Source: Candidatus Poribacteria bacterium
GTDB taxonomy: Bacteria > Poribacteria > WGA-4E > WGA-3G
Direction of reading: 5' to 3'
Assembly (NCBI GenBank): GCA_965242965.1
Contig: OZ251518.1
Span: forward strand, 3,744,001-3,808,000
DNA: 64,000 nt
Of this stretch, positions 14,912 to 43,305 are shown one piece after another. The number at the start of each line of letters is the position of its first letter. Within the stretch, counting starts at the first letter, position 1. Under the pieces are notes generated by a model, which saw only the letters and a program-made list of their open reading frames with translations, did no database searches and was not told where the DNA came from. Made by a program: the position numbers and the translations under genes.

Positions 14912-15419
14912 TGTAGGAGAGACCTCCCGGTCTCGATGCAATAGGGCTGCGCGCCTCCCGGGGCCTCGGCGGCAGAAAGCCCCCTTCATCGTAGGCGTGG
15001 GCCCTCGCAGGTTTCCACACGCGCCTGCGAGCGGGTTTTCCTCGCCATTGTCCGCGCAATCCAACGCGCGCGGGGGACAGGCCCCCACACTACGAAAAAA
15101 ACGTCTCTTAGGTCCGTAGGACCTTAATGTCTATAGCACGCTCGCCTGCGAAGAATGCTAAGGTCCTTTAGGTCCTTAATAGGTTTTGCCATGTGGCGCG
15201 TGTTTTTATTAAGGACCTAAAGGACCTTGAAAACGGCACGACCTGTGTTTCTATAGACATGTAGGTCCTAAAGGACCTAAAACGCCACCTCTTGACAATG
15301 GAGATTGCGGGGGACAGGCCCCCGCGCTACGGGCACATCGAGACCAGGAGGTCTCTCCTACCGGAAATCGAGCCCCGAGGTCTCTCCTACCGAACACATC
15401 GAAATATGAAACACCCTCA
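14912..15419. repeat. REP mosaic with right TIR only
   Basis: Same hairpin modules; ends in TATGAAACACCCTCA (15405-15419), whose TCA supplies the radC stop. Confidence 0.8.
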
Positions 15420-16151
15420 AATAAATCCTTCCTCCTTCAGACTGACGAAGACACCGTCGCCGATGATGACGTGATCCAGCACCTTAATGCCGATGTGATT
15501 TCCCGCTTCGATGAGTTGTTTCGTCGCACGGATGTCCTCTTGACTCGGCTGCGCATCGCCTGAGGGATGGTTATGCGCGAGGACGATGGAATTCGCCGAT
15601 TCCTCAATCGCGAAGCGGAAGATTTCGCGCGGATGAAAGACGCTAGCGTTGAGCGTGCCTTCAAAAATCGTGGTTTCTGCAAGTTTCTTGCCCCAGCCGA
15701 CATCGCCAGCGACACCTTTCGTTGTGACACCGCCTTTTGTGTCAAGGCAGAGCACACAGACGATTTCTTTTTTCAGGTAGCGCATTTTGGACATCAGCAG
15801 GTCAGCCACATCGCTTGGGGCGGTAATTTTCTCGCGTTCGCCGTGGAAGCGTGCCAGCCGTTTGCCGAGTTCCAGCGCGGCGACGATTTCCGCGGCTTTC
15901 GCTTTGCCGACACCTTTGATTTTCTCGAACCGCTGCGCGCGGGTATCCGCCATCTCCTTCAGATCGCCCTGATAAGCGACGAGTATCTGTTCGCCGAGTT
16001 CAAGAGCGGTAGTGCCTTTAAAACCGCTTTTGAGCAAGATCGCGAGGAGTTCGGAGTCTTTCAGGGTTTCGGGTCCGTGTTTCAGTAGCCGCTCGCGCGG
16101 ACGTTCGTCTGCCGGCAGGTCCTTCATGCGTGGACGAGTTGCGTTATACAT
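15417..16151 (-). CDS. radC: RadC (UPF0758, JAB domain) protein
   Basis: ERPRERL, HPREIF, HNHPSG...PSQED, LDHVIIG. Confidence 0.95.
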   Translation of the reverse strand: MYNATRPRMKDLPADERPRERLLKHGPETLKDSELLAILLKSGFKGTTALELGEQILVAYQGDLKEMADTRAQRFEKIKGVGKAKAAEIVAALELGKRLARFHGEREKITAPSDVADLLMSKMRYLKKEIVCVLCLDTKGGVTTKGVAGDVGWGKKLAETTIFEGTLNASVFHPREIFRFAIEESANSIVLAHNHPSGDAQPSQEDIRATKQLIEAGNHIGIKVLDHVIIGDGVFVSLKEEGFI

Positions 16152-16387
16152 TGCATTCCTTTCAGTTAATAGAAAATGTTAAGGATAGTATACCTATTTT
16201 TCGAGATAAATGCAAACGGTTTTTTTCCCTTGACATTTTCTGCAGGGAGATGTTATCATTGCAAGCGCGCTTGTGAAGCGTTACGTCCGCGAATCAGGGA
16301 GCGAGCTTGTCAACTTCCTTTTCGCGAACGTCCCTTTGAAACATACAGAGAAGAACGTCATTGCACCGACAACCGTTAGTGAACGCC

Positions 16388-19300
16388 ATGCGAACAACAA
16401 AAACACTCAACATAAAACCGCACCACAAAGCGATAACCGTCTATTACGATGCGCTTGAGCGGTATCACCAGCACGGAGTCACCCACGAAACTGCCGGGCG
16501 CGCTGCTTTTCAAGCACTCCTTGAAGCCTGCGCGCGACAGAAGAATTGGACGCTCGTCTGTGAATACACGCTCCGACTTCCGGTGGGTTCGCGGGGGACA
16601 GACCCACGCGCTGCGGGGAAACACAGCACCCTCATCCGTCTTGACGGTGTCCTGCTTGACGCGTATAACCTCCCCTGCGGTACCTGGGAGGCGAAAGGCA
16701 TTCAAGGCAATCTGGCTACCGAAGCCCGGCGGAAGTTTGATGCCGGCTACCCCCAGGATAACATCCTCTTTCAAACCCCGGAACGTGCGATGTTGTATCA
16801 GCACGGAGCCCTCGTGCTTGACGAGGACATCACGAACCGGGAGAACCTCGTCGCTGTCCTCAAACGCTTTTTTGCCTACGAACGCGAACATGCCGCCGAG
16901 TGGGAAGCCGCTGTCACCGAATTTCGGGACATTGTCCCGGCCCTGAAGCGCGAGGCGGCGGAACTCATCCAAGCCCAACATCGCACGAGTGCCCGGTTCC
17001 AAACAGCCTTCGCCAATTTCCATCGGCTCTGCCAAGCAGCGATTAACCCGAACCTCTCCGAAGCAGCGGTGAAGGAGATGCTCATCCAGCACCTTTTAAC
17101 GGAACGAACGTTTCGCACCGTTTTTGGGAATCCGGACTTTACGCAGCGCAATATTATTGCACGCGAAATTGAGAAGGTTATCAGAGCACTCACCGAGGAT
17201 GCGTTCAGCCGGGACGAATTCCTCAAAAATCTGAACCCTTTCTACCAAGCGATTGAACGAGAAGCTGTCACCCTCGTCGATTTCTCGCAAAAACAGCACT
17301 TCCTGAATACCGTCTACGAACAGTTTTTTCAGGGCGATTCTGCTGAAATCGCCGATACGCACGGTATCGTCTATACCCCGCAGCCTATCGTCGATTTCAT
17401 GGTGAAGAGCGTGGACTATCTGCTCCAAACCAAATTCGAGCGTTCTCTGTCCGAGGCGGGCGTGCACATCATCGACCCGTTTGTGGGCACCGGCAATTTC
17501 ATCGTTCGGCTGATGCACGAGATAGACAGGTTCCAGTTAGAGGCAAAATACCGTTCGGAACTCTGGTGCAACGAGGTGTTGCTGCTGCCGTATTACATCG
17601 CGAGTATCAACATTGAGCACGAATTTTACGCCGCCATCGGAAAGTATCTCCCGTTTGAAGGCATCTCCCTTGTGGATACGTTTGATTTGGCGGAAGCCCG
17701 GCAGTTGTCGCTCTTAACGCAGGAGAATACCGCGCGCGTGGAGAGACAGAAAGCATCGCCGATGTTTGTCATCATCGGTAATCCGCCCTATAACATCGGG
17801 CAGAAAAACGAGAACGATAACAACAAAAACCGCAAGTATCCGACGATGGATAAGCGGGTGCGTGAAACCTACTCGCGCGACTCGGCTGCGGCCAGTAAAA
17901 AAGCCTTGGGGGATCTGTATGTCAAAGCGATTCGCTGGGCATCGGATAGAATCGGCGAAGCGGGGATTATCGCGTTCGTGACGAACCACAGTTTTCTTGA
18001 AGGCATCTCCTTTGATGGCATGCGGAAACATCTCGCGGCAGATTTTGACGCGCTCTATGTGGTAGACCTCGGGGGGAATGTCCGGCAAGGGCAACCGGGA
18101 GATGCGAATGTGTTTGGAATTCAGTGTGGTGTGTGCATTACCCTTTTTGTGAAAAGAAAACAGGCAACCCCCAAGTCGCCTCGCATCCTTTACAACGGGG
18201 AGACGCGACTCCAGAACAAATCGCAGACTTTTGAATTTTTGGAGAAATGCCAGCATGTAGGCAATGTGACGTGGCAGCAGATTCAACCTGATGCCAGACA
18301 TACATGGATTACCAGCGGCCTTCACTCGGAATTTGGCACGTTCGTTCCAATCGGCATCAAAAAAGCGAGGAAAGAAACCGATGCATCTGTCCCTGCGATT
18401 TTTCACAAATTCGGGCTCGGATTGCAAACGGCTCGGGACGCTTGGCTTTACAATTTTAACCACGACACCCTCATCCAAAACGTCAAGGCTACTATTGATA
18501 CCTACAACGCTCAGGTATTTGGTTGGGAGCGGCGAACAAATCCGGACATATCTGTTGATGATTTTGTCTTGGACGATGGAACAAAAATCAAGTGGAGCTC
18601 GGGGTTGAAAAGGAAACTGATGAGCGGACAAACCGCGGCATTTGCCGACGAGAAAATCCGGGAGGCAATCTACCGACCCTTCACGAAAACGAATCTGTTT
18701 TTTGACAGAACGCTCAATCATATCGTGTCCGTGTTTCCGAGCACTTTTCCGACACCAGCGACAGAGACAGAAAACCAGGTCATCTGGCTCAAAACCGGCA
18801 GGACCTGGCCGATGTTCGCGCTCATGGTAAACAAAATTCCCGACATACTTCCGCAAGGTGCCTCACAGTGCTTCCCCTTCTACGTCTACGATGAAGATGG
18901 CACTAACCGCCGCGAAAACATTACCGATTGGGCGTTGCAAAACTTCCGCGCGCATTACGGCGACGATGCCATCACCAAGTGGGACATCTTCAACTATACG
19001 TATGGCATCCTGCACCATCCTGGGTATCGCCAACGTTACGCGGCAGACCTGGGGCGCGATTTGCCGCATATCCCCTACGCCGAGGATTTCTGGGCATTTG
19101 CGAATGCCGGGGCGCAGTTAGCGGAGATTCACGTGAATTACGAGGCGCAGCCGCAATATCCGCTCACGTTCATCACGAAACCGGACGCACCACTCAATTT
19201 GCGCGTGGAAAAAATGCAATTGTCCAAAGACCGGACGCAACTGAAATACAACGAGTTTCTCACGTTGGCGGGAATTCCGGCGGCAGCGTTTGCGTATCGG

Positions 19301-19498
19301 TTAGGGAATCGTTCGGCGTTGGACTGGCTCATCGAGGGGTATCAGGTGAAGACAGATGATCGGAGTCAACTTGTCAACGATGCGAACAACGCGGCGAAGC
19401 CACGGTATATCGTGGAACTCATCGGTTCTGTCATCACGGTGAGTCTGAAGACGCAGGAGATTGTTGCAGGGTTACCTGAAATGTTCCGTGGTCCGTAG
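16388..19498 (+). CDS. Single-chain restriction-modification enzyme (Type IIG/ISP-like, no helicase)
   Basis: N-terminal D...WEAK nuclease-like motif; GIVYTP, DPFVGTGNF and IGNPPY methyltransferase motifs; LlaBIII-like C-terminus (YRPF, DLPHIP, LGNRSALDW). Confidence 0.85.
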   Translation: MRTTKTLNIKPHHKAITVYYDALERYHQHGVTHETAGRAAFQALLEACARQKNWTLVCEYTLRLPVGSRGTDPRAAGKHSTLIRLDGVLLDAYNLPCGTWEAKGIQGNLATEARRKFDAGYPQDNILFQTPERAMLYQHGALVLDEDITNRENLVAVLKRFFAYEREHAAEWEAAVTEFRDIVPALKREAAELIQAQHRTSARFQTAFANFHRLCQAAINPNLSEAAVKEMLIQHLLTERTFRTVFGNPDFTQRNIIAREIEKVIRALTEDAFSRDEFLKNLNPFYQAIEREAVTLVDFSQKQHFLNTVYEQFFQGDSAEIADTHGIVYTPQPIVDFMVKSVDYLLQTKFERSLSEAGVHIIDPFVGTGNFIVRLMHEIDRFQLEAKYRSELWCNEVLLLPYYIASINIEHEFYAAIGKYLPFEGISLVDTFDLAEARQLSLLTQENTARVERQKASPMFVIIGNPPYNIGQKNENDNNKNRKYPTMDKRVRETYSRDSAAASKKALGDLYVKAIRWASDRIGEAGIIAFVTNHSFLEGISFDGMRKHLAADFDALYVVDLGGNVRQGQPGDANVFGIQCGVCITLFVKRKQATPKSPRILYNGETRLQNKSQTFEFLEKCQHVGNVTWQQIQPDARHTWITSGLHSEFGTFVPIGIKKARKETDASVPAIFHKFGLGLQTARDAWLYNFNHDTLIQNVKATIDTYNAQVFGWERRTNPDISVDDFVLDDGTKIKWSSGLKRKLMSGQTAAFADEKIREAIYRPFTKTNLFFDRTLNHIVSVFPSTFPTPATETENQVIWLKTGRTWPMFALMVNKIPDILPQGASQCFPFYVYDEDGTNRRENITDWALQNFRAHYGDDAITKWDIFNYTYGILHHPGYRQRYAADLGRDLPHIPYAEDFWAFANAGAQLAEIHVNYEAQPQYPLTFITKPDAPLNLRVEKMQLSKDRTQLKYNEFLTLAGIPAAAFAYRLGNRSALDWLIEGYQVKTDDRSQLVNDANNAAKPRYIVELIGSVITVSLKTQEIVAGLPEMFRGP

Positions 19499-32266: not shown

Positions 32267-32526
32267 TATTCCTCCTCTTTCCCAATGTCCTCGCCAGCCA
32301 TCAGAATCGCCTGTCGGAGTGCGTTCCGCCGGTGCTTCAGCGAGTCCTCCAGCCCCTTCAGATGCAGGAGCCAAGAGTCTTTCGATTCGCCCTCCGCCGT
32401 GCCAAATCCATCAGTCATCGCGAGGCGGATATATTTCAACCGTTCAGTCTGAAGCACCTTGACTTGTGCGTCATAGTCTTCAATGCCCGATGCAAGTAGC
32501 GTAGCAAGTTCACGGATTTTTTCCAA
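32266..32526 (-). CDS. Small helical hypothetical protein, translationally coupled to the TPR/CRTAC1 gene
   Basis: TTG start with GGAGGA; its stop overlaps the next ATG. Confidence 0.7.
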   Translation of the reverse strand: MEKIRELATLLASGIEDYDAQVKVLQTERLKYIRLAMTDGFGTAEGESKDSWLLHLKGLEDSLKHRRNALRQAILMAGEDIGKEEE

Positions 32527-32701
32527 AGTTTGTCCTCCAGAATTAGAACTTGGACATTTTGAGATATGTTAACATTCTATTGTAGCCTATTGCGCGTTTT
32601 TATGCAAATGTCAAAAAAACACCTATTTTTCATGCTCTCCGACAAGCCAGAAGCCGTCAGCGGGGCAAACTAAATGTCCTGCAAAAACCGCCGCGTTTTT
32701 C

Positions 32702-32730
32702 TTGACAAAAGAAGCATCTGGTGGTATAAT
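32702..32730 (+). promoter_or_regulatory. Consensus extended sigma70 promoter of the first RM gene
   Basis: TTGACA, 17 bp spacer, TGg-TATAAT. Confidence 0.8.
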
Positions 32731-32768
32731 GTTATTGTTCAAAAATCACGGAAAGGAAAAACCGCGTT

Positions 32769-35561
32769 ATGCCGCAAACCGACATCATCCAAACCATTCT
32801 GAAAGACAGCAGTTACCACCTCAGTCTCTTCACGGAAACCGAGATTGAGGCGTTGCGCAAGAGAATCTTCACGCAAACGGTGGAAGATAATCCTGCCGCG
32901 TTTGTCACCTGCGCTATCCGCAATAGGGCGATTCAACTGAAACCGGAAGAACTCATCCGCCAACTTTACGTGGCGCGGCTCTTGAACCAGTACGGCTATA
33001 CCCCAGACCGGGTGGCATTGGAGTATCCTGTCAGTTTTGGACGGGAACGGAAACGTGCCGATATCGTCATCGTTGACAAAGACCGGCCGGATACCCCCTA
33101 TATCATCGTTGAGGTGAAAAAGCCGAAACTCTTAGAGGGCAAAACGCAACTTCGTTCCTATTGCAACGCCACCGGCGCGCCTATCGGGGTGTGGACAAAC
33201 GGACAGCACATCTCCCACTACCACCGCAGAGAACCGAATTACTTCGAGGAGATTACCGATATTCCAAACGTGCACCAGGCACTTTCGGATATCCTAAGTG
33301 AACGTTTCACCCTCAAAAACCTCATCCTCAAGGATAAACTCTCCATGGAGCGGAAATCGTTGAAGGACATTGTCTTGGAACTAGAAGACGAAGTCCTCTC
33401 CAATGCGGGGGTTGATGTCTTCGAGGAAGTCTTCAAACTCATTTTTGCCAAACTCTACGATGAGTTTAAGAGTCAAGAAGACAAAGCGTTTATCTCTCGC
33501 CTCCTACGGCAGAACGTGAGAATGACTGCACAAGAACAAAGCAGTGCTAACGCTCTTGATGTTGCGGACTCTGATGCCGTTAAGAAGGCAGTTGAGGAAA
33601 TTCCGAATGATGATTTTCGTGTTTTGGAATTCAGAAACACTGGGCAAACGGATGCCGAACTGAAAGCCAAAATCCAACGCCTTTTTGATGAGGCGAAAAA
33701 TCATTGGCAAGGCGTTTTTCCAGAGGCTTCAACGTTTGAACTCTCCGACAGCCATCTCGCCGTCTGCGTCTCTAGTCTGCAAGACGTAAAAATGTTCAAT
33801 TCCAATCTGCAGGTGGTAGATGAAGCGTTTGAATATCTGGTGAGCAAATCCGCGAAAGGCGAAAAGGGACAATACTTCACGCCGCGTCATGTCATCGACA
33901 TGTGCGTGAAAATGCTCAATCCGCAGCCCGGCGACTCCATGATTGATACCGCCGCCGGGAGCTGTGGATTTCCGGTACATACGATTTTCAAACTCACCGG
34001 CACCTTGTTTAGCACGGGCGATATCGCTGCGGCGGACAAGCAGCATATCCGCAAGGTGTTTGGCATTGACTTTGACGAGAAGACGGTGCGCGTTGCGCGG
34101 ACGCTCAATCTAATTGCAGGCGATGGCGAGGCGAATGTGTTGCACCTGAATACGCTAGACTATGAACGCTGGAGTGACTGGACAGAACGCGATAAACAGT
34201 GGATTATCACCTATAGTGGTGGGTTCAAGCGGTTGGAAGGCTTCAGAGCCGAGCCTGGGGAAAACCGGCGGTTTCACTTTGATATCCTCATGGCAAATCC
34301 ACCGTTCGCGGGGGACATTAAGGAACGCCGCATCTTGCAACGGTATCGCCTTGGTTCTAAGCCAAACGGCAAAATGCAGACCAAGGTTGGGCGCGATGTG
34401 TTGTTTATTGAGCGGAATTTAGATTTCCTCAAACCGGGTGGACGGATGGCGATTGTCCTTCCCCAAGGAAAATTTAGTGCCCCTATGCACCGACATATCC
34501 GCGAATTTATCATGGAGCAGGCGCGCATCTTGGCTGTCGTCAGTTTGCATGAGAATACGTTCAAACCGCACACCAGTCCCAAAACGAGTCTCTTATTCGT
34601 GCAAAAATGGAACGATGAACCGGGCCAGGGCCCGCTGTGCCCAAAGGTGGATAACTATCCTATTTTCTTCGCCGTGAGCGAAAAAGGCGGCAAAGATACC
34701 TCCGGCAACTATATCTATTTCAAAGATGGTGACGGTGACTGCAAGTTCGACAAAAATGGGCATCTCACTGTTGCGCATGATTTGCACAATCACGATGGTG
34801 AACTGCCTGATGGCATCGCTGAGTCTTTCATGGCGTGGGCGAAACGGGAGAACCTCTCTTTTTGGCAATCCAATAATTCAACGGAGTGGGCTCCCATCCC
34901 CGGTCTCACGTTTGAGAAGGATTACGTCAATGTCCAGTCTGCCGGGCGTATTGACGCGGATTATTTCCAGCCGAAATACGAGCGAATTGAAGCGGCGATT
35001 AAGAGATATCCGCAGGGGTATACCCGCATTCGCGACGAATTTGAGCACAACAAAAGCACCTTCAACATTGAACCGGAGAAAGTGTATCGCTACGTAGAAA
35101 TCGGGAGCGTCAATCCGGTTACCGGGGATATCACCGCTCAGGAGGTGTTGGGCAAAGATTTGCCGGCGAATGCAAAGCGCGTGCTGAGAAAGGGGGACAT
35201 CATCGTCTCGAAAGTCCGCACCTACCGAGGCGCGATTACCATTGTCCAAGAAGATGGGTATGTCGGCAGCGGCGCGTTTTGTGTCTTGCGAGAAAATGGA
35301 CGGGTTAACAAGGAGACGTTGCTTTCGTGTTTATGCTCAGACGTTTTTCTACCCTGGTCTTTGAAACCGAGCACCGGCACCTCCTATCCTATCTTGGATG
35401 ACGATGACATTCTGGATTTTCCGATTCCGTTGCTCTCTCCAGCGGAGCAGGCGCAGATTAAACAAAGTGTCACAGCATCCTTTGACTTGCTGCGGGAATC
35501 CAAAGCGTTGCGGCTGCGGTGTAAGCAGGCGATGGAAATCGCGATGGGGCTAGAAGATTAA
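32769..35561 (+). CDS. RM copy 1: HsdR-N-type nuclease + N6-adenine methyltransferase + fused single TRD
   Basis: KPEE...RADIV...VEVKKP; GQYFTPR, DTAAGSCGF, NPPF; C-terminal RIDADYFQPKY...GTSYP half-S domain. Confidence 0.9.
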   Translation: MPQTDIIQTILKDSSYHLSLFTETEIEALRKRIFTQTVEDNPAAFVTCAIRNRAIQLKPEELIRQLYVARLLNQYGYTPDRVALEYPVSFGRERKRADIVIVDKDRPDTPYIIVEVKKPKLLEGKTQLRSYCNATGAPIGVWTNGQHISHYHRREPNYFEEITDIPNVHQALSDILSERFTLKNLILKDKLSMERKSLKDIVLELEDEVLSNAGVDVFEEVFKLIFAKLYDEFKSQEDKAFISRLLRQNVRMTAQEQSSANALDVADSDAVKKAVEEIPNDDFRVLEFRNTGQTDAELKAKIQRLFDEAKNHWQGVFPEASTFELSDSHLAVCVSSLQDVKMFNSNLQVVDEAFEYLVSKSAKGEKGQYFTPRHVIDMCVKMLNPQPGDSMIDTAAGSCGFPVHTIFKLTGTLFSTGDIAAADKQHIRKVFGIDFDEKTVRVARTLNLIAGDGEANVLHLNTLDYERWSDWTERDKQWIITYSGGFKRLEGFRAEPGENRRFHFDILMANPPFAGDIKERRILQRYRLGSKPNGKMQTKVGRDVLFIERNLDFLKPGGRMAIVLPQGKFSAPMHRHIREFIMEQARILAVVSLHENTFKPHTSPKTSLLFVQKWNDEPGQGPLCPKVDNYPIFFAVSEKGGKDTSGNYIYFKDGDGDCKFDKNGHLTVAHDLHNHDGELPDGIAESFMAWAKRENLSFWQSNNSTEWAPIPGLTFEKDYVNVQSAGRIDADYFQPKYERIEAAIKRYPQGYTRIRDEFEHNKSTFNIEPEKVYRYVEIGSVNPVTGDITAQEVLGKDLPANAKRVLRKGDIIVSKVRTYRGAITIVQEDGYVGSGAFCVLRENGRVNKETLLSCLCSDVFLPWSLKPSTGTSYPILDDDDILDFPIPLLSPAEQAQIKQSVTASFDLLRESKALRLRCKQAMEIAMGLED

Positions 35562-35706
35562 AACGCCGCGTTTTTTAGTTTGCCATTTTTTAGTTTTTGT
35601 GGTATCCTATAATTGCTTGGGTTCGTGAAACGGCCGCGGCGAAAAGGCGGCACTCGGCCCTGGCACAGTGTATGACTGAGCGCGTCGCGTTCACTTGCGT
35701 TGAAAC
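35561..35706 (+). promoter_or_regulatory. Duplicated promoter and leader upstream of RM copy 2
   Basis: TTGCCA, 17 bp spacer, TGg-TATCCT; near-identical to 38681-38825. Confidence 0.6.
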
Positions 35707-35707
35707 T

Positions 35708-35850
35708 TGTAGGTCAGGATCGCCAGATCCTGACCTGTTCGGGAGCGGGCGCTCCCGAACTACAGAGGTGGGCCCGAGGCATTCCGGTAGGAGGGACCTC
35801 CTTGTCCCGATACGCACCACATCGAGACCAGGAGGTCTCTCCTACTGGGA
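35708..35850. repeat. GTAG-REP hairpin cluster in the leader of RM copy 2
   Basis: GTAGGTCAGGATCGCCAGATCCTGACC, TTCGGGAGCGGGCGCTCCCGAACTAC and GAGACCAGGAGGTCTCTCCTAC. Confidence 0.8.
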
Positions 35851-35882
35851 AGACATTGATCAGTTAATCAGGGAACGTAGTT

Positions 35883-38681
35883 ATGCCGCAAACCGACATC
35901 ATCCAAACCATTCTGAAAGACAGCAGTTACCACCTCAGTCTCTTCACGGAAGCCGAGATTGAGGTATTACGCGAGCGAGTCGTGACGCAAACAGTCAGCG
36001 GCAAGCAGACAGCATTCGTGAACTGCGCCGTTCGGAATAAGGCGATTCAACTGAAACCGGAAGAACTCATCCGCCAACTTTACGTGGCACGGCTCCTGAA
36101 CCAGTACGGCTACACCCCAGACCGGGTGGCTCTGGAGTATCCTGTCAGTTTTGGCCGGGAGACGAAGCGCGCCGATATCGTCATCCGCGATAAAGATTGG
36201 CCGGATACTCCCTATCTTATCGTAGAGGTGAAGAAGCCGAAGTTGCAGGATGGCAAGGCACAACTCCGCTCCTATTGTAATGCCACCGGCGCGCCTATCG
36301 GGGTGTGGACAAACGGACAGCACATCTCCCACTACCACCGCAAAGACCCGAACTACTTTGAGGAAATCACCGATATTCCGAGCGCGAACCAAAGTCTCGC
36401 GGACATCCTCAACGAACGGTTTACCTTGAAGGACCTGATTCTCAAGGACAAACTCGTCTCGGCACGGAAATCCTTAAAGGACATCATTTTGGAATTGGAG
36501 GATGAAGTCCTCGCCAACGCCGGTGTAGACGTGTTTGAGGAAGTCTTCAAACTCATCTTTACTAAACTCTACGATGAGTTTAAGAGCCAAGAAGACAAAA
36601 CGTTTATCAACCGCATCCTCCAGCCAAAAACGGCCATCGCGAGCAAAGGTGAAAACGGGACTTACGCGCCTAACAGTCCGGATTATGAGACTATCAAGCG
36701 GGCGATTGAAGGGATTCCTGACGATGGTTACTTTCGGGTTTTGGCGTTCAGAAACACTGGGCAAACGGATGCCGAACTGAAAGCCAAAATCCAACGTCTT
36801 TTTGATGACGCGAAAAATCATTGGCAAGGTGTTTTTCCAGAGGGTTCAACGTTTGAACTCTCCGACAGCCATCTTGCTGTCTGCGTCTCCAGTTTGCAGG
36901 ATGTGAAGTTATTTGACTCAAATCTGCAGGTAGTCGATGAGGCGTTTGAATATCTGGTGAGCAAATCCGCGAAAGGGGAAAAGGGACAATACTTCACGCC
37001 GCGCCATGTCATCGACATGTGCGTGAAAATGCTCAATCCACAGCCCGGCGACTCCATGATTGATACCGCCGCCGGGAGTTGTGGGTTTCCGGTGCATACG
37101 ATTTTCAAACTCACCGGCACCTTGTTTCCTGCAGGCGACAGCACGCCGGCGGACAAGCGACATATCCGCAAGGTGTTTGGTATTGACTTTGACGAGAAGA
37201 CGGTGCGCGTTGCGCGGACGCTCAACCTGATTGCGGGTGATGGCGAGGCGAATGTGTTGCACCTGAACACGCTTGACTATGAACGCTGGAGCGACTCGAC
37301 AGAACGCGATAAACAGTGGATTATCACCTATAGCGGTGGGTTCAAGCGGTTGGAAGGCTTCAGAGCCGAGCCTGCGGAAGACCGGCGGTTTTCCTTTGAC
37401 ATCCTCATGGCAAATCCCCCTTTTTCTGGTGAGATTAAGGAGAGCCGCATCCTACATCAATACCGCCTCGGCTTTAAGCCAAACGGCAAAGCGCAAGCCA
37501 GGGTGAAGCGCGATATTTTGTTCATTGAGCGGAATTTGGATTTCCTCAAGCCGGGTGGACGGATGGCGATTGTGCTACCCCAAGGCAGGTTCAACAATCC
37601 TTCCGACAAATATATCCGCGATTTTATTGCCGAGCGTGCTCGCATATTGGCTGTTGTCGGATTGGACATTAACGTGTTCAAACCGCACACCGGCACGAAA
37701 ACCAGCGTGCTGTTTGTCCAAAAGTGGAACGATAACGCCGCTGATGGGCCTCTATGTCGCAAAGTAGATGACTACCCCATCTTCTTCGCCGTGAGTGAAA
37801 AAGGTGGCAAGGATACCTCCGGCGACTATATCTATCTCGAAAATGGTGATGGAGATTACAAACTCGACAAAAACAGGCATCTCATTGTTGCGCATGATTT
37901 GCACAATCACGATGGTGAACTGCCTGATGGCATCGCCGAGTCTTTCATGGCGTGGGCGAAACAGGAGAACCTCTCTTTTTGGCAATCCAACGATGCAGCG
38001 CAATGGGCTCCCATCCCCGGTCTCACGTTTGAGAAGAATTACGCCGATGTCCAGCACGCTGAACGGATTGACGCAGACTACTTCCAACCGAAATATGATG
38101 ACATCGTGAATGCCATCCAAACCTACCCAGGCGGCTGGGATACCCTCGGAAATCTCGTTCAGTTAGAGGACACCATTTTCAGGCATGCGCGAGAAACCGA
38201 ATACCGGTATATTGAACTTGCCAATATCGGAGCCAATGGCGAGATAACCGGTTGTATGACAGCATTAGGGAAAGATTTGCCGAGCCGCGCACGTCACTTA
38301 GTCAGCACCGGAGATGTCATTGTTTCATCCATAGAAGGCTCTCTGGATAGCATCGCCTTGATTCCAGAGGAATATGACGGGGCCCTCTGTTCAACAGGTT
38401 TCCATGTGATTCGCTCAGATACGCTGGATTCGGAAGTGCTGTTCGCCTTCTTGAAAAGTTGCGCCGGGCAGTTGCAGCTCAAGAAAGGGTGTAGCGGGAC
38501 AATCCTGACTGCCATTAACAAGGCGGAATTCCGTAAGGTGATTTTACCCAAAATTACGGCGGAAAAGCAGGCGGAAATCCGGCAGCAAGTCGCTCAGGCT
38601 GTGAACTTGCGCCGGCAGGCTAACGCGTTACTGGCAGGGAGCACTCAGGCGGTGGACATTGCGATGGGGCTAGAAGATTAA
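35883..38681 (+). CDS. RM copy 2: nuclease + N6-methyltransferase + a different fused single TRD
   Basis: Same motifs as copy 1; C-terminal domain diverges after ERIDADYFQPKY and both end in IAMGLED. Confidence 0.9.
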   Translation: MPQTDIIQTILKDSSYHLSLFTEAEIEVLRERVVTQTVSGKQTAFVNCAVRNKAIQLKPEELIRQLYVARLLNQYGYTPDRVALEYPVSFGRETKRADIVIRDKDWPDTPYLIVEVKKPKLQDGKAQLRSYCNATGAPIGVWTNGQHISHYHRKDPNYFEEITDIPSANQSLADILNERFTLKDLILKDKLVSARKSLKDIILELEDEVLANAGVDVFEEVFKLIFTKLYDEFKSQEDKTFINRILQPKTAIASKGENGTYAPNSPDYETIKRAIEGIPDDGYFRVLAFRNTGQTDAELKAKIQRLFDDAKNHWQGVFPEGSTFELSDSHLAVCVSSLQDVKLFDSNLQVVDEAFEYLVSKSAKGEKGQYFTPRHVIDMCVKMLNPQPGDSMIDTAAGSCGFPVHTIFKLTGTLFPAGDSTPADKRHIRKVFGIDFDEKTVRVARTLNLIAGDGEANVLHLNTLDYERWSDSTERDKQWIITYSGGFKRLEGFRAEPAEDRRFSFDILMANPPFSGEIKESRILHQYRLGFKPNGKAQARVKRDILFIERNLDFLKPGGRMAIVLPQGRFNNPSDKYIRDFIAERARILAVVGLDINVFKPHTGTKTSVLFVQKWNDNAADGPLCRKVDDYPIFFAVSEKGGKDTSGDYIYLENGDGDYKLDKNRHLIVAHDLHNHDGELPDGIAESFMAWAKQENLSFWQSNDAAQWAPIPGLTFEKNYADVQHAERIDADYFQPKYDDIVNAIQTYPGGWDTLGNLVQLEDTIFRHARETEYRYIELANIGANGEITGCMTALGKDLPSRARHLVSTGDVIVSSIEGSLDSIALIPEEYDGALCSTGFHVIRSDTLDSEVLFAFLKSCAGQLQLKKGCSGTILTAINKAEFRKVILPKITAEKQAEIRQQVAQAVNLRRQANALLAGSTQAVDIAMGLED

Positions 38682-38939
38682 AACGCCGCGTTTTTTTGTT
38701 TGCCATTTTTGTCTTTTTGTGGTATCCTATAATTGCCTGGGTTCGTGAACGGCCGCAGCGAAAAGGCGGCACTCGGCCCTGGCGCGATGCATGCTTGAGC
38801 GCGTCGCGTTCACTTGCGTTGAAACACGCAACTCACAAAAAACGGCGGCAGTCAACTTGCGGTTCGGTGCTGCAACGCCGATGAGTTGAGGTGTAGGCAT
38901 TCTTAATCAGCCCACAAAAAGGAGGCATCCGGATAACCC
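38681..38939 (+). promoter_or_regulatory. Promoter and structured 5' leader of RM copy 3
   Basis: Same promoter block as 35561-35706; stems GTGAAC/GTTCAC, TTGCGT/ACGCAA and CAACTCA/TGAGTTG; AGGAGG. Confidence 0.5.
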
Positions 38940-41054
38940 ATGATAGCGAAAGACATCATCAGAGACATCCTGAGGGATAGCGATTACCATCTTGACCTTT
39001 TCACAGAAACCGAGGTTCGGGCTTTACGCGAAAGAATCTATACCGAAACGGTGAAGGGTAAGGAGACGTATTGCATTAGCTGCGCTGTTCGGAATAAGGT
39101 GGTTCAGTTGAAACCCGAAGAACTGATTCGCCAACTCTACGCAACACGGTTGATTGAGACATACGGCTACCCCAAAACGCGATTGGCCTTTGAATACTCT
39201 GTCAGTTTCGGCCGGGAGACGAAGCGCGCTGATATCGTCATCCGCGATAAAGATTGGCTGGATACTCCCTACATTATCATAGAGGTGAAGAAGCCGAAAC
39301 TTGCAGCAGGGAAAAATCAACTCCGTTCCTATTGCAATGCCACCGGCGCGCCTATCGGTGTGTGGACAAACGGTGAAAAGATTTCGCACTACCACCGCAA
39401 AGACCCGAATTACTTTGAGGAAATCACCGATATTCCGAGCGCGAACCAAAGTCTCGCGGACATCCTCAACGAACGGTTTACGTTGAAAGACCTGATTCTC
39501 AAGGACAAACTCGTCTCGGCGCGGAAATCCTTAAAGGACATCATTTTGGAATTGGAGGATGAAGTCCTCGCCAACGCCGGTGTAGATGTTTTTGAGGAAG
39601 TCTTCAAACTCATTTTTACCAAACTCTACGACGAGTCACTGAGCGAAGAAGACAAAACGTTTATCAACCGCGTCCTGCGGCGGAAAACCGGTGCCGCTCT
39701 CCAAGAGGATGACACGCCTTACACGCCTAATAGCCCAAATTATGATGCGATAAAGAGGGCTGTCGAAGCAATCCCTGACGATGGTGACTTTCGCGTCATG
39801 GCGTTCAGAAACACCGGGCAAACCGATGCTGAACTAAAAAAGAAAATTCAACGCCTCTTTGACGAAGCGAAAAACCATTGGAAGGGTGTCTTTCCGGAGG
39901 GTGAAACGTTTCAACTCTCGGACAGTCATCTCGCCGTCTGCGTCTCTAGTTTGCAGGATGTCAAGTTGTTCAACTCAAATCTGCAGGTGGTAGACGAGGC
40001 GTTTGAATATCTAGTGAGCAAATCCGCAAAGGGAGAAAAAGGACAGTATTTCACGCCGCGCCACGTCATTGACATGTGCGTGAAAATGCTCAATCCGCAG
40101 CCCGGCGAATATATGATCGATACGGCTGCCGGAAGTTGCGGATTTCCCGTGCATACCCTTTTCAAACTCACCGGGCATTTGTTCACCAATGCCGAAATAT
40201 CCGAAGAAGATAAGCAGCATGTCCTCAAAGTGTTCGGCATTGACTTTGACGAAAAGACTGTCCGAGTGGCGCGAACCCTTAACTTAATCGCGGGCGACGG
40301 CGAGACCAATGTCCTGCATCTTAACACATTAGATTATGAACGTTGGAACGAAAGAACCGTCGGCGACCCGAGATGGATTATCACCTACGGCAGAGGGTTT
40401 GATCGGTTGAAGGCGTTAAGAGCGGAACAAGACGAAAACAAGCGGTTCAACTTTGATATCCTCATGGCCAATCCCCCGTTTGCTGGAGATATTAAGGAAC
40501 GGCGCATTTTGCAACAGTACCGCCTCGGCTTTAAACCGAACGGCAAAGCGCGAACCAAAGTCGGACGCGACATTCTGTTTATTGAGCGGAACCTTGATTT
40601 CCTTAAACCCGGTGGACGGATGGCGATAGTGCTACCACAAGGCCGCCTCAACAACACATCTGAAAAGTATATCCGCGATTTTATCGCCGAGCACACGCGA
40701 ATCCTCGCTGTCGTTGGTTTGAATCGGAACACTTTTAAACCACACACCGGCACCAAAACCAGCGTTTTGTTCCTCCAAAAATGGAACGACGACCCGAGCA
40801 AGGGACCGCTCTGCCCCAGAGTTGATGACTACCCAACCTTTTTGGCCATCAGTGAAAAAGGCGGAAAGGATAACTCGGGCGAGTATGTTTGCCTCACAAA
40901 TCAAAACGGACAACCCAAGTTGGACGAAAATGGACATCTCATTGTTGAGCATGACCTGCACAATCACAATGGTGAACTGCCCGATGGCATCGCCGAAGCC
41001 TTTATTGAATGGGCGAAAAGCGAAAAGTTGTCCTTTTGGGAAGACACCGAATGA
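38940..41054 (+). CDS. RM copy 3: nuclease + N6-methyltransferase without fused TRD (Type IIB A-subunit-like)
   Basis: Same motifs; ends FWEDTE-TGA at the point where copies 1 and 2 continue into a TRD. Confidence 0.9.
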   Translation: MIAKDIIRDILRDSDYHLDLFTETEVRALRERIYTETVKGKETYCISCAVRNKVVQLKPEELIRQLYATRLIETYGYPKTRLAFEYSVSFGRETKRADIVIRDKDWLDTPYIIIEVKKPKLAAGKNQLRSYCNATGAPIGVWTNGEKISHYHRKDPNYFEEITDIPSANQSLADILNERFTLKDLILKDKLVSARKSLKDIILELEDEVLANAGVDVFEEVFKLIFTKLYDESLSEEDKTFINRVLRRKTGAALQEDDTPYTPNSPNYDAIKRAVEAIPDDGDFRVMAFRNTGQTDAELKKKIQRLFDEAKNHWKGVFPEGETFQLSDSHLAVCVSSLQDVKLFNSNLQVVDEAFEYLVSKSAKGEKGQYFTPRHVIDMCVKMLNPQPGEYMIDTAAGSCGFPVHTLFKLTGHLFTNAEISEEDKQHVLKVFGIDFDEKTVRVARTLNLIAGDGETNVLHLNTLDYERWNERTVGDPRWIITYGRGFDRLKALRAEQDENKRFNFDILMANPPFAGDIKERRILQQYRLGFKPNGKARTKVGRDILFIERNLDFLKPGGRMAIVLPQGRLNNTSEKYIRDFIAEHTRILAVVGLNRNTFKPHTGTKTSVLFLQKWNDDPSKGPLCPRVDDYPTFLAISEKGGKDNSGEYVCLTNQNGQPKLDENGHLIVEHDLHNHNGELPDGIAEAFIEWAKSEKLSFWEDTE

Positions 41055-41084
41055 CAGTTAAAAGAGACTGTCCTGGACGGACGA

Positions 41085-42515
41085 GTGAAGGTGCATTATT
41101 CAATCGTGAATTACGCCGAGATTGCCGAAAACTCCGATTTTAGGCTAGCGGCGGAGTATTATCATCCCGTCAGTTTGGCTATTCATCGCAAAATCAGGGA
41201 TAGCGGCGGCATCTCTTTTTTTCAGTGCCTCACGAAATTCTCATCCGGGAAAAACCTGCCGCAAACTCCGACTGGCAAATTCAAGTTCATTAGAACCCAA
41301 AATGTCAGGACTATCCTCGTCAGCGATAACGGAATGAGTCATACCGATAGGGCAGACGAATTAACTGAAATCGGGGAATTGCTTTTTGTGAGAGTCGGGG
41401 ATGTTGGCGATAGTTCTGTCGTCACGCCCACCTCGGCCAACAGCACGGTGAGTGATAATGTGCTACGGCTAAAAGTCACAGGAATAAACCCGTTTTTCTG
41501 CTCGGTTTTCTTTAATTCCACAGTCGGGCAGACATATTTCAAAAGAGTCTTCAAGGGCACTAGCCAAGGGTTAATTAGCCGCGAAAATTTCAGGGACATC
41601 CTCATCCCGCAATTCTCGGAAAAATTCCAAAATGCAATGGAATTTTTCTGTCTGGAAGCGGATTCTCTGCACCAGCAGAGCGTTCTCAAGTCCAGTGATG
41701 CCGAAAAACTGTTACTTGTTGAACTTAACCTCGCCAACTGGCAGCCGAAACCACAACTCGCCTTCGTCAAAAACTATTCGGATGTTCAGGGGGCAGAACG
41801 CTTTGACGCAGACTACTTCCAACCCAGATACGATGACATCGTCAACGCTATTAAAGGCTATCCGGGAGGTTGGGATACGTTAGGAAACCTCGTCACGTTG
41901 GAAAAGTGCGTTGAGGTGGGTAGCCGGAAATACCGGGAGACAGGCATCCCCTTCGTGCGCGTGAGCAATCTGAGTCCGTTTGAAATCACGCACGAGAAAT
42001 ACATCTCGGAAGAGTTGTACGCGGAACTTGAGCAACACCAACCGAAACAGGGAGAAATCCTGCTCAGCAAGGATGCAACACCCGGCATCGCGCATCATCT
42101 GCGCGAACAGCCGACTAAAATGATTCCCGCAGGCGGCATCCTCCGATTGAAGCACAAATCCGAACTCGTCCGAACTGCCTATCTGACGCTAGTACTCAAT
42201 TCGATTTTGGGGCAAGAACAGGTGAGTCGCGATGTGGGAGGTTCGGTAATTCCGCATTGGCGGCCATCTCAGGTGGCAGAAACGCTCATTCCTATTCTGC
42301 CTGATGAGAAGCAGGCGGAGATCGAGCGGAAAGTCACCGAATCCTTTAACCTGCGCCAACAATCCAAGCACCTGTTGGAATGCGCAAAACGCGCCGTGGA
42401 CATCGCAATTGAGGCGGATGAAGAGACGGCTCTGAGATGGTTGGAAACCGGCTCCAAATCTACCAACGCTGCACCGGGAGTGCTTCGATTTCCTCAAAAT
42501 GCGCATCCCGCGTAA
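41085..42515 (+). CDS. Two-TRD specificity subunit (HsdS-like)
   Basis: Two half-domains starting RLAAEYYHP and RFDADYFQP; IPFVRVSNL, GEILLSKD, IPILPDEKQAEI. Confidence 0.87.
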   Translation: MKVHYSIVNYAEIAENSDFRLAAEYYHPVSLAIHRKIRDSGGISFFQCLTKFSSGKNLPQTPTGKFKFIRTQNVRTILVSDNGMSHTDRADELTEIGELLFVRVGDVGDSSVVTPTSANSTVSDNVLRLKVTGINPFFCSVFFNSTVGQTYFKRVFKGTSQGLISRENFRDILIPQFSEKFQNAMEFFCLEADSLHQQSVLKSSDAEKLLLVELNLANWQPKPQLAFVKNYSDVQGAERFDADYFQPRYDDIVNAIKGYPGGWDTLGNLVTLEKCVEVGSRKYRETGIPFVRVSNLSPFEITHEKYISEELYAELEQHQPKQGEILLSKDATPGIAHHLREQPTKMIPAGGILRLKHKSELVRTAYLTLVLNSILGQEQVSRDVGGSVIPHWRPSQVAETLIPILPDEKQAEIERKVTESFNLRQQSKHLLECAKRAVDIAIEADEETALRWLETGSKSTNAAPGVLRFPQNAHPA

Positions 42516-42525
42516 CACAGGTACT

Positions 42526-43305
42526 TGAGGGGGTTTCATAAATCCCCGTAGGAGAGACCTCCTGGTCTCGATGCAATCGGGCGGCGCGCCTACCGGGGCC
42601 GCGGCGGCAGAAAGCCCCCCTCATCGTAGGGCGAGGGCCCTCGCATGCCATCTGCGCATGCGAGTGGGTTTCCCTCGCCATCGTCCGCGCAATTCAACGA
42701 TCGCGGGGGACAGGCCCCCGCACTACAAAAAAAACGGTCCTTCACCGTAGGGCGAGGGCCTGTCCCTCGCCATCGCTCGCGCTACGCAAAAAACGTCTTT
42801 TGTTCTCTTAGGTCCGTAGGACCTTAATGTCTATAGCACTCGGCGATCCGAAGAGCTCTAAGGTCCTTTAGGTCCTTAATGTGTTTTGCCATGCGGCGCG
42901 TGTTTTTATTAAGGACCTAAAGGACCTTGAAAACAAGACGACACGTGTATCTATAGACATTAAGGTCCTAAAGGACCTAAAACGCATCGTGACGATGGAC
43001 GCTCGCGGGGGACAGGCCCCCGCGCTACGGGCGGAGAAAATCCCCTCCTTCATCGTAGGGCGAGGGCCTGTCCCTCGCCAGCGTCCGCTCGCCAGGCCCT
43101 GTAGGTCAGGATCGCCTGATCCTGACCTGTTTGTGATCAGGCGATCACAAACTACAGATGGGGAAACACGCATCGTGACGCTGGACAACGCGGGGACAGG
43201 CCCCCGCGCTACGGGAACATCGAGACCAGGAGGTCTCTCCTACCGAGAAGAAATCGAGCACCGAGGTCTCTCCTACCGAACACATCGAAATATGAAACAC
43301 CCTCA
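42526..43305. mobile_element. MITE-like shell with REP cargo (780 bp)
   Basis: TIRs TGAGGGGGTTTCATA / TATGAAACACCCTCA; flanks GGTACT / GGTAAT. Confidence 0.8.

Follow-up and report, generated by a model that had tools for sequence, protein, structure and literature searches.

Which DNA sequences can be read by a restriction-modification (RM) locus in which the same nuclease-methyltransferase chain occurs three times in a row, twice with a specificity domain of its own attached? This question is raised by an array of four co-directional genes on the plus strand, which fills positions 32769-42515 of a 64,000-nt stretch of DNA from a Candidatus Poribacteria bacterium (contig OZ251518.1, positions 3,744,001 to 3,808,000; the whole stretch is called the window in the following). 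The identity of the parts is near certain; taken as a whole, the array is probably a Type IIB locus which has grown by tandem duplication, and three specificities, here termed A/A, B/B and C/D after the target recognition domains (TRDs) involved, would be expected from it. Enzymatic activity, dimerisation, symmetry of the recognised sites and two-sided cleavage would follow for the array enzymes by analogy with characterised relatives.

Genes and modules of the array

The first gene, copy 1 (32769-35561, 930 aa), encodes a single chain consisting of a nuclease (R), a methyltransferase (M), one TRD of a type called A and a terminal helix (R~M~TRD-A~helix, the tilde denoting fusion within one chain); copy 2 (35883-38681, 932 aa), 321 nt away and, like copy 1, intact, is organised as R~M~TRD-B~helix. 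Copy 3 (38940-41054, 704 aa) is an RM chain without a TRD, its C-terminus being a short helix as is typical for Type I M chains and BcgI-like RM chains; 30 nt downstream begins, with GTG, the gene for a specificity (S) subunit with two TRDs and two conserved helices (41085-42515, 476 aa). Compared with copy 1 as a whole, copy 2 is 72% and copy 3 is 73% identical, and within residues 1-700 the three chains are 70-85% identical, depending on the region. No further copies of the RM module and no further S-like pieces were found in the whole genome (G000; 5.70 Mb in 2 contigs).

That the three paralogs share an HsdR-N-type nuclease and an N6-methyltransferase with intact catalytic motifs, as an earlier note made from the sequence alone had it, was borne out by domain searches. 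In Pfam, all three chains match HSDR_N_2 at residues 59-166 (E 1e-26 to 2e-27; 32943-33266 in copy 1) and N6_Mtase at residues ~350-618 (E 1e-32 to 6e-35; residues 349-617, 33813-34619, in copy 1), as well as the Eco57I domain. The nuclease residues D98...E115-x-K117, the S-adenosylmethionine-binding motif DTAAGSCGF and the catalytic NPPF, which places the methyltransferases in the gamma class of N6-adenine enzymes, are present in each. All three score 920-950 bits (copy 3, 933 bits) on the PADLOC model PDLC03034 ("MTase_I"), and the RM module thus belongs to an already catalogued family. A profile of the fused proteins is collinear with RM.BsaXI (E 3.5e-25), both in the nuclease (profile positions 56-127, with the EVK residues aligned) and in the methyltransferase (positions 345-614).

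The absence of an HsdR helicase, noted before for the array, extends to the entire 5.70 Mb genome: the best match to TIGR00348 reached 32 bits against a cut-off of 284.55, while the same model found matches in 9 of 14 control genomes; likewise, no helicase domain was detected by Pfam in any of the four array proteins. A Type I system was ruled out on the grounds of the HsdR score. What is present instead corresponds to two forms of Type IIB: copy 3 with the S gene has the BcgI-like composition (an RM chain, an adjacent two-TRD S subunit, no ATP-dependent translocase), and copies 1 and 2 the HaeIV-like one (R, M and a single TRD in one polypeptide). The S subunit matches PADLOC Specificity_I (E 8e-31) in two stretches, with TRD-type matches in both halves. 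Among the curated NCBIfam models the best matches of the array proteins are MAD2 and MAD5 of the methylation-associated defence system (MADS); membership was rejected since both scores fall well short of the threshold (MAD2, 293 bits where 720 are required; MAD5, at most 127 where 400 are required), and the likeness is best taken, judging by sequence, as shared ancestry of methyltransferase and S modules.

The ~230 residues that follow the RM part of the fused chains (approximately residues 701-930) have the properties of one half of an S subunit. The tails of copy 1 (residues 701-930; 34869-35558) and copy 2 (residues 702-932; 37986-38678) are 40.7% identical to each other and fall into TRD types A and B, confirming that the two genes end in two different single TRDs. 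Both align to residues 215-449 of the S protein (28-39% identity), and the junction motif W-x-P-x-P-x-L-x-F-x-K-x-Y...R-x-DADYFQP is found in copy 1, copy 2 and S (alignment columns 733-765); the junction thus does lie opposite the middle of S, as previously claimed. In sequence searches the tails match Type I S subunits with E ~1e-20 to 1e-23, and the fused-protein profile matches the structures 5ybb_D and 3okg_A (E ~1e-23) over one TRD plus one conserved helix. Both tails end in an identical ...IAMGLED.

An AlphaFold2 model of the copy 2 tail, made from a 29-row alignment (mean predicted local distance difference test score (pLDDT) 83.6, predicted template modelling score 0.77), shows a globular TRD between a disordered linker of ~26 residues and a C-terminal helix of 38 residues (193-230 of the model). 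With Foldseek the model matches HsdS structures (E 3e-12) and the S subunit of BsaXI (8w0p_C; E 3e-9), BpuSI following at rank 48 with E 0.023. Together with the S-subunit matches and the collinearity with BsaXI, this agrees with the earlier view of copies 1 and 2 as RM chains fused to the second half of S. The tail model also matches Esub1 (8vsq_A, 8vsr_B/D; TM-score 0.71-0.76, normalised to the target), a free-standing protein of ~185-196 aa crystallised with Prx, whose fold accordingly amounts to a single TRD plus a helix.

Relatives, and probable duplication and exchange among the copies

Related loci were surveyed as the best 80 of >570 candidates each in genome and metagenome collections, so that rarer forms may have been missed. 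In all 80 genome loci and all 80 metagenome loci, an RM gene of ~700 aa is accompanied by a separate S gene; fused or tandem forms were found in none of either set. The position in front of a PhyH gene, which the S gene of the array adjoins in synteny with the S genes of its relatives, is occupied in a genome of another genus of the same family (G009) by an RM gene (695 aa) and an S gene (437 aa) directly before PhyH (91% identical). Because of this, and of the two surveys, the two-gene form is regarded as the ancestral state, as far as comparison of sequences can tell.

Fused genes are rare by comparison. The RM module occurs in 83 of 176 genomes of the phylum, and uninterrupted fused frames of at least 900 aa are found in only five of the 176 (G000, with two, and G002, G017, G136 and G158); two different fused copies are present only in the genome described here. 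In a genome of the same genus (G002) the order is a fused 941-aa gene, an RM gene (712 aa), a DUF4145 gene, S and then PhyH (95% identical); its fused gene is 88.7% identical to copy 1 and its RM protein 81% identical to copy 3, and a counterpart of copy 2 appears to be absent. A further congener (G001) has a copy 1-type tail at the start of a contig, followed by RM and S. In G017 the fused gene stands alone, no RM or S-like gene being detected within ~4 kb on either side. Among the best 120 database proteins, 13 are ~923-937 aa, three 1176-1225 aa and 104 693-751 aa in length.

The fused homologs carry only two types of TRD, A as in copy 1 and B as in copy 2, and both are also found in second position in apparent R~M~S proteins with lengths of 1176-1178 aa. 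In at least 14 genomes, separate S genes have C-terminal TRDs which share 61-69% identity with TRD-A; TRD-B shares 49-61% with TRDs from many S proteins, some of them named from Bacteroides and Parabacteroides, and for the TRD of copy 2 (residues 744-895) identity reaches 76% with the N-terminal TRD in the S protein of G009. This spread indicates that the TRDs are ordinary, exchangeable modules. TRD-B is fused in other layouts as well (proteins P0133, P0135 and P0130); these include a 648-aa methyltransferase~half-S protein without a nuclease domain (like M.DrdI), a 1256-aa protein with a DprA-type domain (PF02481) and a 934-aa RM~half-S protein of only 51% identity.

The interval between RM and S, which is empty (30 nt) in the window, serves as a cargo slot in relatives (loci L024-L183 and L020:7830-8543), exceeding 450 nt in 51 of 133 loci. 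Pfam matches were obtained for 25 of 41 open reading frames (ORFs) scanned in such gaps: DUF4145 (6), AAA_15/AAA_21 ATPases (4, one with an OLD TOPRIM domain), the YhcG/DUF1016 nuclease (3), Fic (2), RhuM (2, one also with Fic), Bro-N (2), DUF3800 (2) and, once each, Schlafen AlbA_2, DUF6119, Trypsin_2 and Guanylate_cyc. Possible half-S genes were encountered at two loci: one in Poribacteria (L031:11191-12523), where S follows RM in two pieces of 193 and 189 aa, and one in Rodentibacter (L103:12454-13170), where an extra half-S-like ORF of 238 aa follows the full S gene; either may reflect a frameshift or a real half-S.

Within the array, DNA identity over the RM part is 83.1% between copies 1 and 2, 74.3% between copies 1 and 3, and 78.1% between copies 2 and 3; uninterrupted identity extends over 71 nt at most. 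Copy 2 is mosaic in its RM part, some 90-nt windows being 94-97% copy 1-like and others 93-99% copy 3-like; the database proteins P0008 and P0010 are further mosaics, the latter being of the copy 3 type at its N-terminus and of the copy 1 type in its middle, with TRD-B in its tail. These clear mosaics suggest that the copies exchange sequence by gene conversion. The fused copies appear to be under purifying selection, the ratio of nonsynonymous to synonymous substitution rates (dN/dS), computed for copy 1 against its ortholog in G002, being 0.13 over the gene as a whole, 0.115 in the RM part and 0.20 in the tail.

A segment comprising the last part of the gene and ~145 nt past the stop codon is repeated behind copies 1 and 2 (35485-35706 and 38605-38825, both plus strand; repeat families D8 and D10, 83-91% identity), its first occurrence containing a TATAAT hexamer with a weak -35 element. 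These 3' flanks are a likely substrate for unequal crossing-over. In one of the public sequencing runs (X6, a sponge metagenome from another study) a single contig joins 35571 to 38691, skipping 3119 nt which are exactly copy 2. Copy 2 therefore appears to be missing in this contig as well as in the congener G002, which suggests that two-copy and three-copy forms both exist in nature. Nineteen public runs were listed as holding the stretch, several of them labelled sponge metagenome and none of them an RNA data set; independent runs from 3 studies cover 29-30 of its 30 bins, and contigs specific for copy 2 are present in runs X1, X2 and X4, again from 3 studies. The evidence used from the runs is coverage and the one bridging contig, not contig depths. 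Programmed switching of the phase-variation or shufflon kind was considered and rejected, as no notable simple-sequence tracts and no inverted repeats of at least 40 nt were present in 32400-42900, and no invertase was found.

From these observations the following course of events is proposed. A chromosomal Type IIB locus of the BcgI/BsaXI type would have given rise to the three paralogous RM genes by tandem duplication, copy 3 with S representing the ancestral two-gene enzyme. Copies 1 and 2 would derive from a duplicated RM-S unit in which an in-frame deletion joined the C-terminal helix of RM to the start of the C-terminal TRD of S, resulting in R~M~TRD~helix, the design of HaeIV. Crossing-over at the repeated 3' flanks would then add copy 2 or remove it.

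The surroundings of the array are those of an ordinary chromosomal region, with genes for DnaE, an MFS transporter, FG-GAP/TPR proteins, PhyH and a giant Big_12 protein; tRNA genes are absent from the window. A palindromic element resembling repetitive extragenic palindromes (REP) is located at 35819-35846, in the spacer between copies 1 and 2, and in reverse orientation at 42548-42573, after S; with up to 2 mismatches allowed, 1,620 matches to its 22-nt core were counted in the genome (769 forward, 851 reverse; 0 for a control pattern). This element accounts for the extreme contig depths of bins 35606-35939 and 42286-42590 and for the numerous spurious joints linking the two places. Another methyltransferase/specificity gene, unrelated to the array and ~13 kb away from it, encodes a 1045-aa protein (16361-19498, plus strand) with ISP_coupler, N6_Mtase and Type_ISP_C domains, in which a domain scan detected neither a Type ISP nuclease nor a helicase part; just upstream, on the opposite strand, lies a RadC-like JAB gene (15417-16151, minus strand).

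Proposed pairing of the fused chains

If the enzymes behave as their architecture suggests, copy 3 and S would form, by analogy, an (RM)2S complex with an asymmetric bipartite site, in which an adenine of either half would be methylated; failing this, the DNA would be cut to both sides of the site. Each fused chain would pair with itself via its S-type C-terminal helix to give (RM~halfS)2. In copies 1 and 2 the terminal helix of the RM part runs straight into the TRD, so that in a homodimer four helices would once more be available, the RM ends and the tails contributing two each. The sites would be palindromic and bipartite, A-N-A' for copy 1 and B-N-B' for copy 2, so that the locus would read three specificities with four different TRDs. 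It is the architecture of HaeIV, taken together with known homodimers of half-S subunits, that leads one to expect two palindromic bipartite specificities in addition to C/D.

Several points weigh against this picture. Most characterised single-TRD RM fusions, namely the MmeI-type and BpuSI-type enzymes, have contiguous asymmetric sites as their targets. The AlphaFold2 model of full-length copy 1 was unusable (mean pLDDT 38.4, from a 9-row alignment), and the short linker between RM and TRD might be incompatible with an M2S-like assembly. Further, expression of all copies is not self-evident. A sigma-70-type promoter is located upstream of copy 1 (32702-32730, plus strand; TTGACA-17-TATAAT with extended TG, a 12/12 match to the hexamers) at a distance of 39 nt from the ATG, and is the only site above 10/12 in 32300-43000; promoter-like sites as such are hardly enriched in the region (11, versus 8.8 +/- 3.3 in shuffled sequence), and the best matches for copies 2 and 3 reach 9/12, which is no better than chance. 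The promoter formerly assigned to each copy is thus convincing for copy 1 only, and copies 2 and 3 may depend on read-through for their expression.

The extension of the proposed scheme which fares best is the combinatorial one put forward in the earlier note, according to which copies 1 and 2 pair not only as 1:1 and 2:2 but also with each other, the mixed dimer reading an asymmetric hybrid site A-N-B' and bringing the number of specificities to four. This is a genuine possibility, if clearly the lesser one. The genes are neighbours, co-directional and intact (321 nt apart), and their C-terminal helices are of one kind and share the final ...IAMGLED; as Type IIB enzymes methylate the sites they read, a hybrid would presumably protect its host by itself. 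The idea is also anticipated in the literature and physically reasonable: co-expression of N- and C-terminally truncated EcoDXXI S genes restores wild-type specificity, and combinatorial pairing of half-S chains is stated explicitly (both in section 26 of PMC3874165).

The mixed pair was also addressed by complex prediction. Residues 670-930 of copy 1 with residues 671-932 of copy 2 gave a score of 0.56, compared to 0.00 for the best of 3 controls; runs agreed in at least 72% of contacts and the pLDDT of the partner was at least 69. Of 157 solved complexes, 116 attain this mark, as do 2 of 215 mismatched pairs, and the range up to 0.60 contains only 18 of the 157 solved complexes plus both mismatches that passed; the result is a weak hint of an interface and is mute on whether homo- or hetero-pairing is preferred. 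It may also reflect likeness to known structures, since coiled coils of S subunits have already been solved. Against mixed pairing stand the helices of the two copies, which are only ~45% identical, and the finding that each helix type stays with its own TRD type in 16 of 16 homologs, which fits self-pairing too; in addition, both chains occur together in 1 of 176 genomes, giving no sign that the pair has been selected as a unit. Of the pairings suggested earlier, the two homodimers can thus lean on precedent (HaeIV and half-S subunits), and the 1:2 pair draws on the weak complex score and on EcoDXXI. That homodimers and heterodimer coexist, with A/A, B/B and A/B on top of C/D and with a crossover at copy 2 switching two specificities at once, is possible but doubtful.

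A monomeric Type IIG nature of copies 1 and 2, after the fashion of MmeI or BpuSI, is unlikely; enzymes of this kind recognise a short contiguous asymmetric site, methylate one strand and cut on one side. Single-TRD RM fusions are, according to Table 4 of PMC3874165 and to PMC3526280, the commonest form of Type IIG, and MmeI-type enzymes are also predicted to have C-terminal helices. The tails considered here, however, appear to be recently derived from the two-TRD S of the same locus and retain the whole 38-residue S-type dimerisation helix, which is conserved under purifying selection (dN/dS of the tail, 0.20); the tail model resembles HsdS and S.BsaXI (E 3e-12 to 3e-9) far better than BpuSI (E 0.023), and no MmeI-family Pfam domain was detected in copies 1-3.

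Even less probable is a role of copies 1 and 2 as non-working leftovers, or as a reservoir of RM and TRD sequence for copy 3 and S. Such a role would account for the gene-conversion mosaics among the copies and their database homologs and for the apparent dispensability of copy 2 (in G002 and in one contig of run X6), but both genes are full-length with all catalytic motifs, copy 1 has a dN/dS of 0.13 compared with an ortholog from another species, fused genes also exist on their own with no RM or S-like gene within ~4 kb (in G017), and the array contains no invertase, inverted repeats of 40 nt or more, or switching simple-sequence tracts. Finally, although tandem paralogs are in principle prone to mis-assembly, an artefactual triplication, which the earlier note had named as something to be checked, can practically be dismissed: the copies differ at 17-26% of their DNA positions with no more than 71 identical bases in a row, the genome is assembled into 2 contigs, the congener G002 has the same layout minus copy 2, public runs cover 29-30 of the 30 bins, copy 2-specific contigs come from 3 studies, and close orthologs of copy 2 (83-95% identical over the full length) come from other assemblies.

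Returning to the tandem-duplicated Type IIB locus with self-pairing fused chains, its interest lies in the transition it seems to record. Each of the three layouts published for Type IIB enzymes (RM+S, RM~half-S, RM~S) is represented in one gene family, and two of them stand side by side as recent paralogs, as if the conversion of a BcgI-type into a HaeIV-type enzyme, by duplication, in-frame joining of RM and S and a swap of TRDs, had been caught in the act. For the biology of sponge symbionts this would imply that restriction specificities can diversify fast within a population, and, if active, the enzymes would provide new Type IIB specificities for tag-based methods such as 2b-RAD. Should the heterodimer form alongside the homodimers, self-contained RM~half-S chains would here constitute a naturally occurring system of combinatorial restriction, in which a single crossover toggles two specificities in a symbiont population.

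Comparison with known systems

The earlier note knew of no description of this architecture, which is wrong for the single chain and apparently right for the array. A single-chain R~M~one-TRD enzyme has been published in the form of HaeIV, a Type IIB/IIG enzyme of Haemophilus aegyptius, listed in Table 4 of PMC3874165 as 2R~gammaM~[GAY] with the site 7/13 GAY N5 RTC 14/9 and apparently forming homodimers in solution (PMC4027205). Two different RM~half-S paralogs in tandem with an RM+S pair, linked by gene conversion and by presence or absence of copy 2, appear to be undescribed: neither tandem RM~half-S paralogs nor a natural heterodimeric Type IIB enzyme is described in the literature searched, which included passages of PMC12707154 and PMC3526280 and did not extend to most subscription journals or to REBASE.

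Copies 1 and 2 resemble HaeIV in their order of modules, the N-terminal PD-(D/E)xK nuclease, the gamma-class N6-methyladenine methyltransferase, the single TRD and the chain length of ~930 aa, and their S-type C-terminal helix would permit the kind of homodimer inferred for HaeIV. The likeness seen is one of architecture; here, two chains with different TRDs stand next to each other, and the two-gene enzyme of which they are recent paralogs belongs to the same locus. Among 201 genomes of Pasteurellaceae, 10 encode an unfused RM protein of the present family; among the matches listed, none of this family was in a fused frame, and only weak matches (32-34% identity) lay in frames of 870-874 aa.

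BcgI and BsaXI are the counterparts of copy 3 with S, an RM chain plus a separate two-TRD S subunit. According to PMC11997821, BsaXI requires its PD-(D/E)xK site for cleavage and forms an (RM)2S complex, and BcgI-like RM chains end in a single helix which joins the two S helices in a four-helix bundle in M2S. The S protein of the array has the same length as S.BsaXI (476 aa), the RM chain aligns with the nuclease and methyltransferase of RM.BsaXI, and the copy 2 tail model matches the structure of S.BsaXI. RM.BsaXI differs in having 916 aa, with a C-terminal "paddle" (residues 800 onward) implicated in cleavage by the same source; copy 3 has 704 aa and the profile match to RM.BsaXI ends at residue 626 of the latter, which fits the BcgI-like group with its single C-terminal helical tail. 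AloI, CjeI and TstI represent the third layout, single R~M~S chains of ~1250 aa with two TRDs. Apparent R~M~S fusions also exist in the present RM family (P0015, 1176 aa; P0062, 1178 aa; P0074, 1225 aa), P0015 and P0062 having TRD-A or TRD-B as their second TRD; copies 1 and 2 differ from all of these in keeping only one TRD and one helix.

The closest precedent for the proposed self-pairing is provided by half-S subunits of Type I systems and by the Type 1 1/2 methyltransferases (M.AhdI), in which one TRD with one helix pairs with itself on a palindromic bipartite site; section 26 of PMC3874165 names EcoR124I delta-50, both EcoDXXI truncations and NgoAV as homodimers of this kind, and mixed halves read a hybrid site. 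The locus described here may serve as a natural test of the point made for Type I systems that unfused half-S chains permit combinatorial pairing; there, the half-S chains are free polypeptides which recruit a separate M (and R), whereas copies 1 and 2 carry their half-S as a covalent extension of the RM chain.

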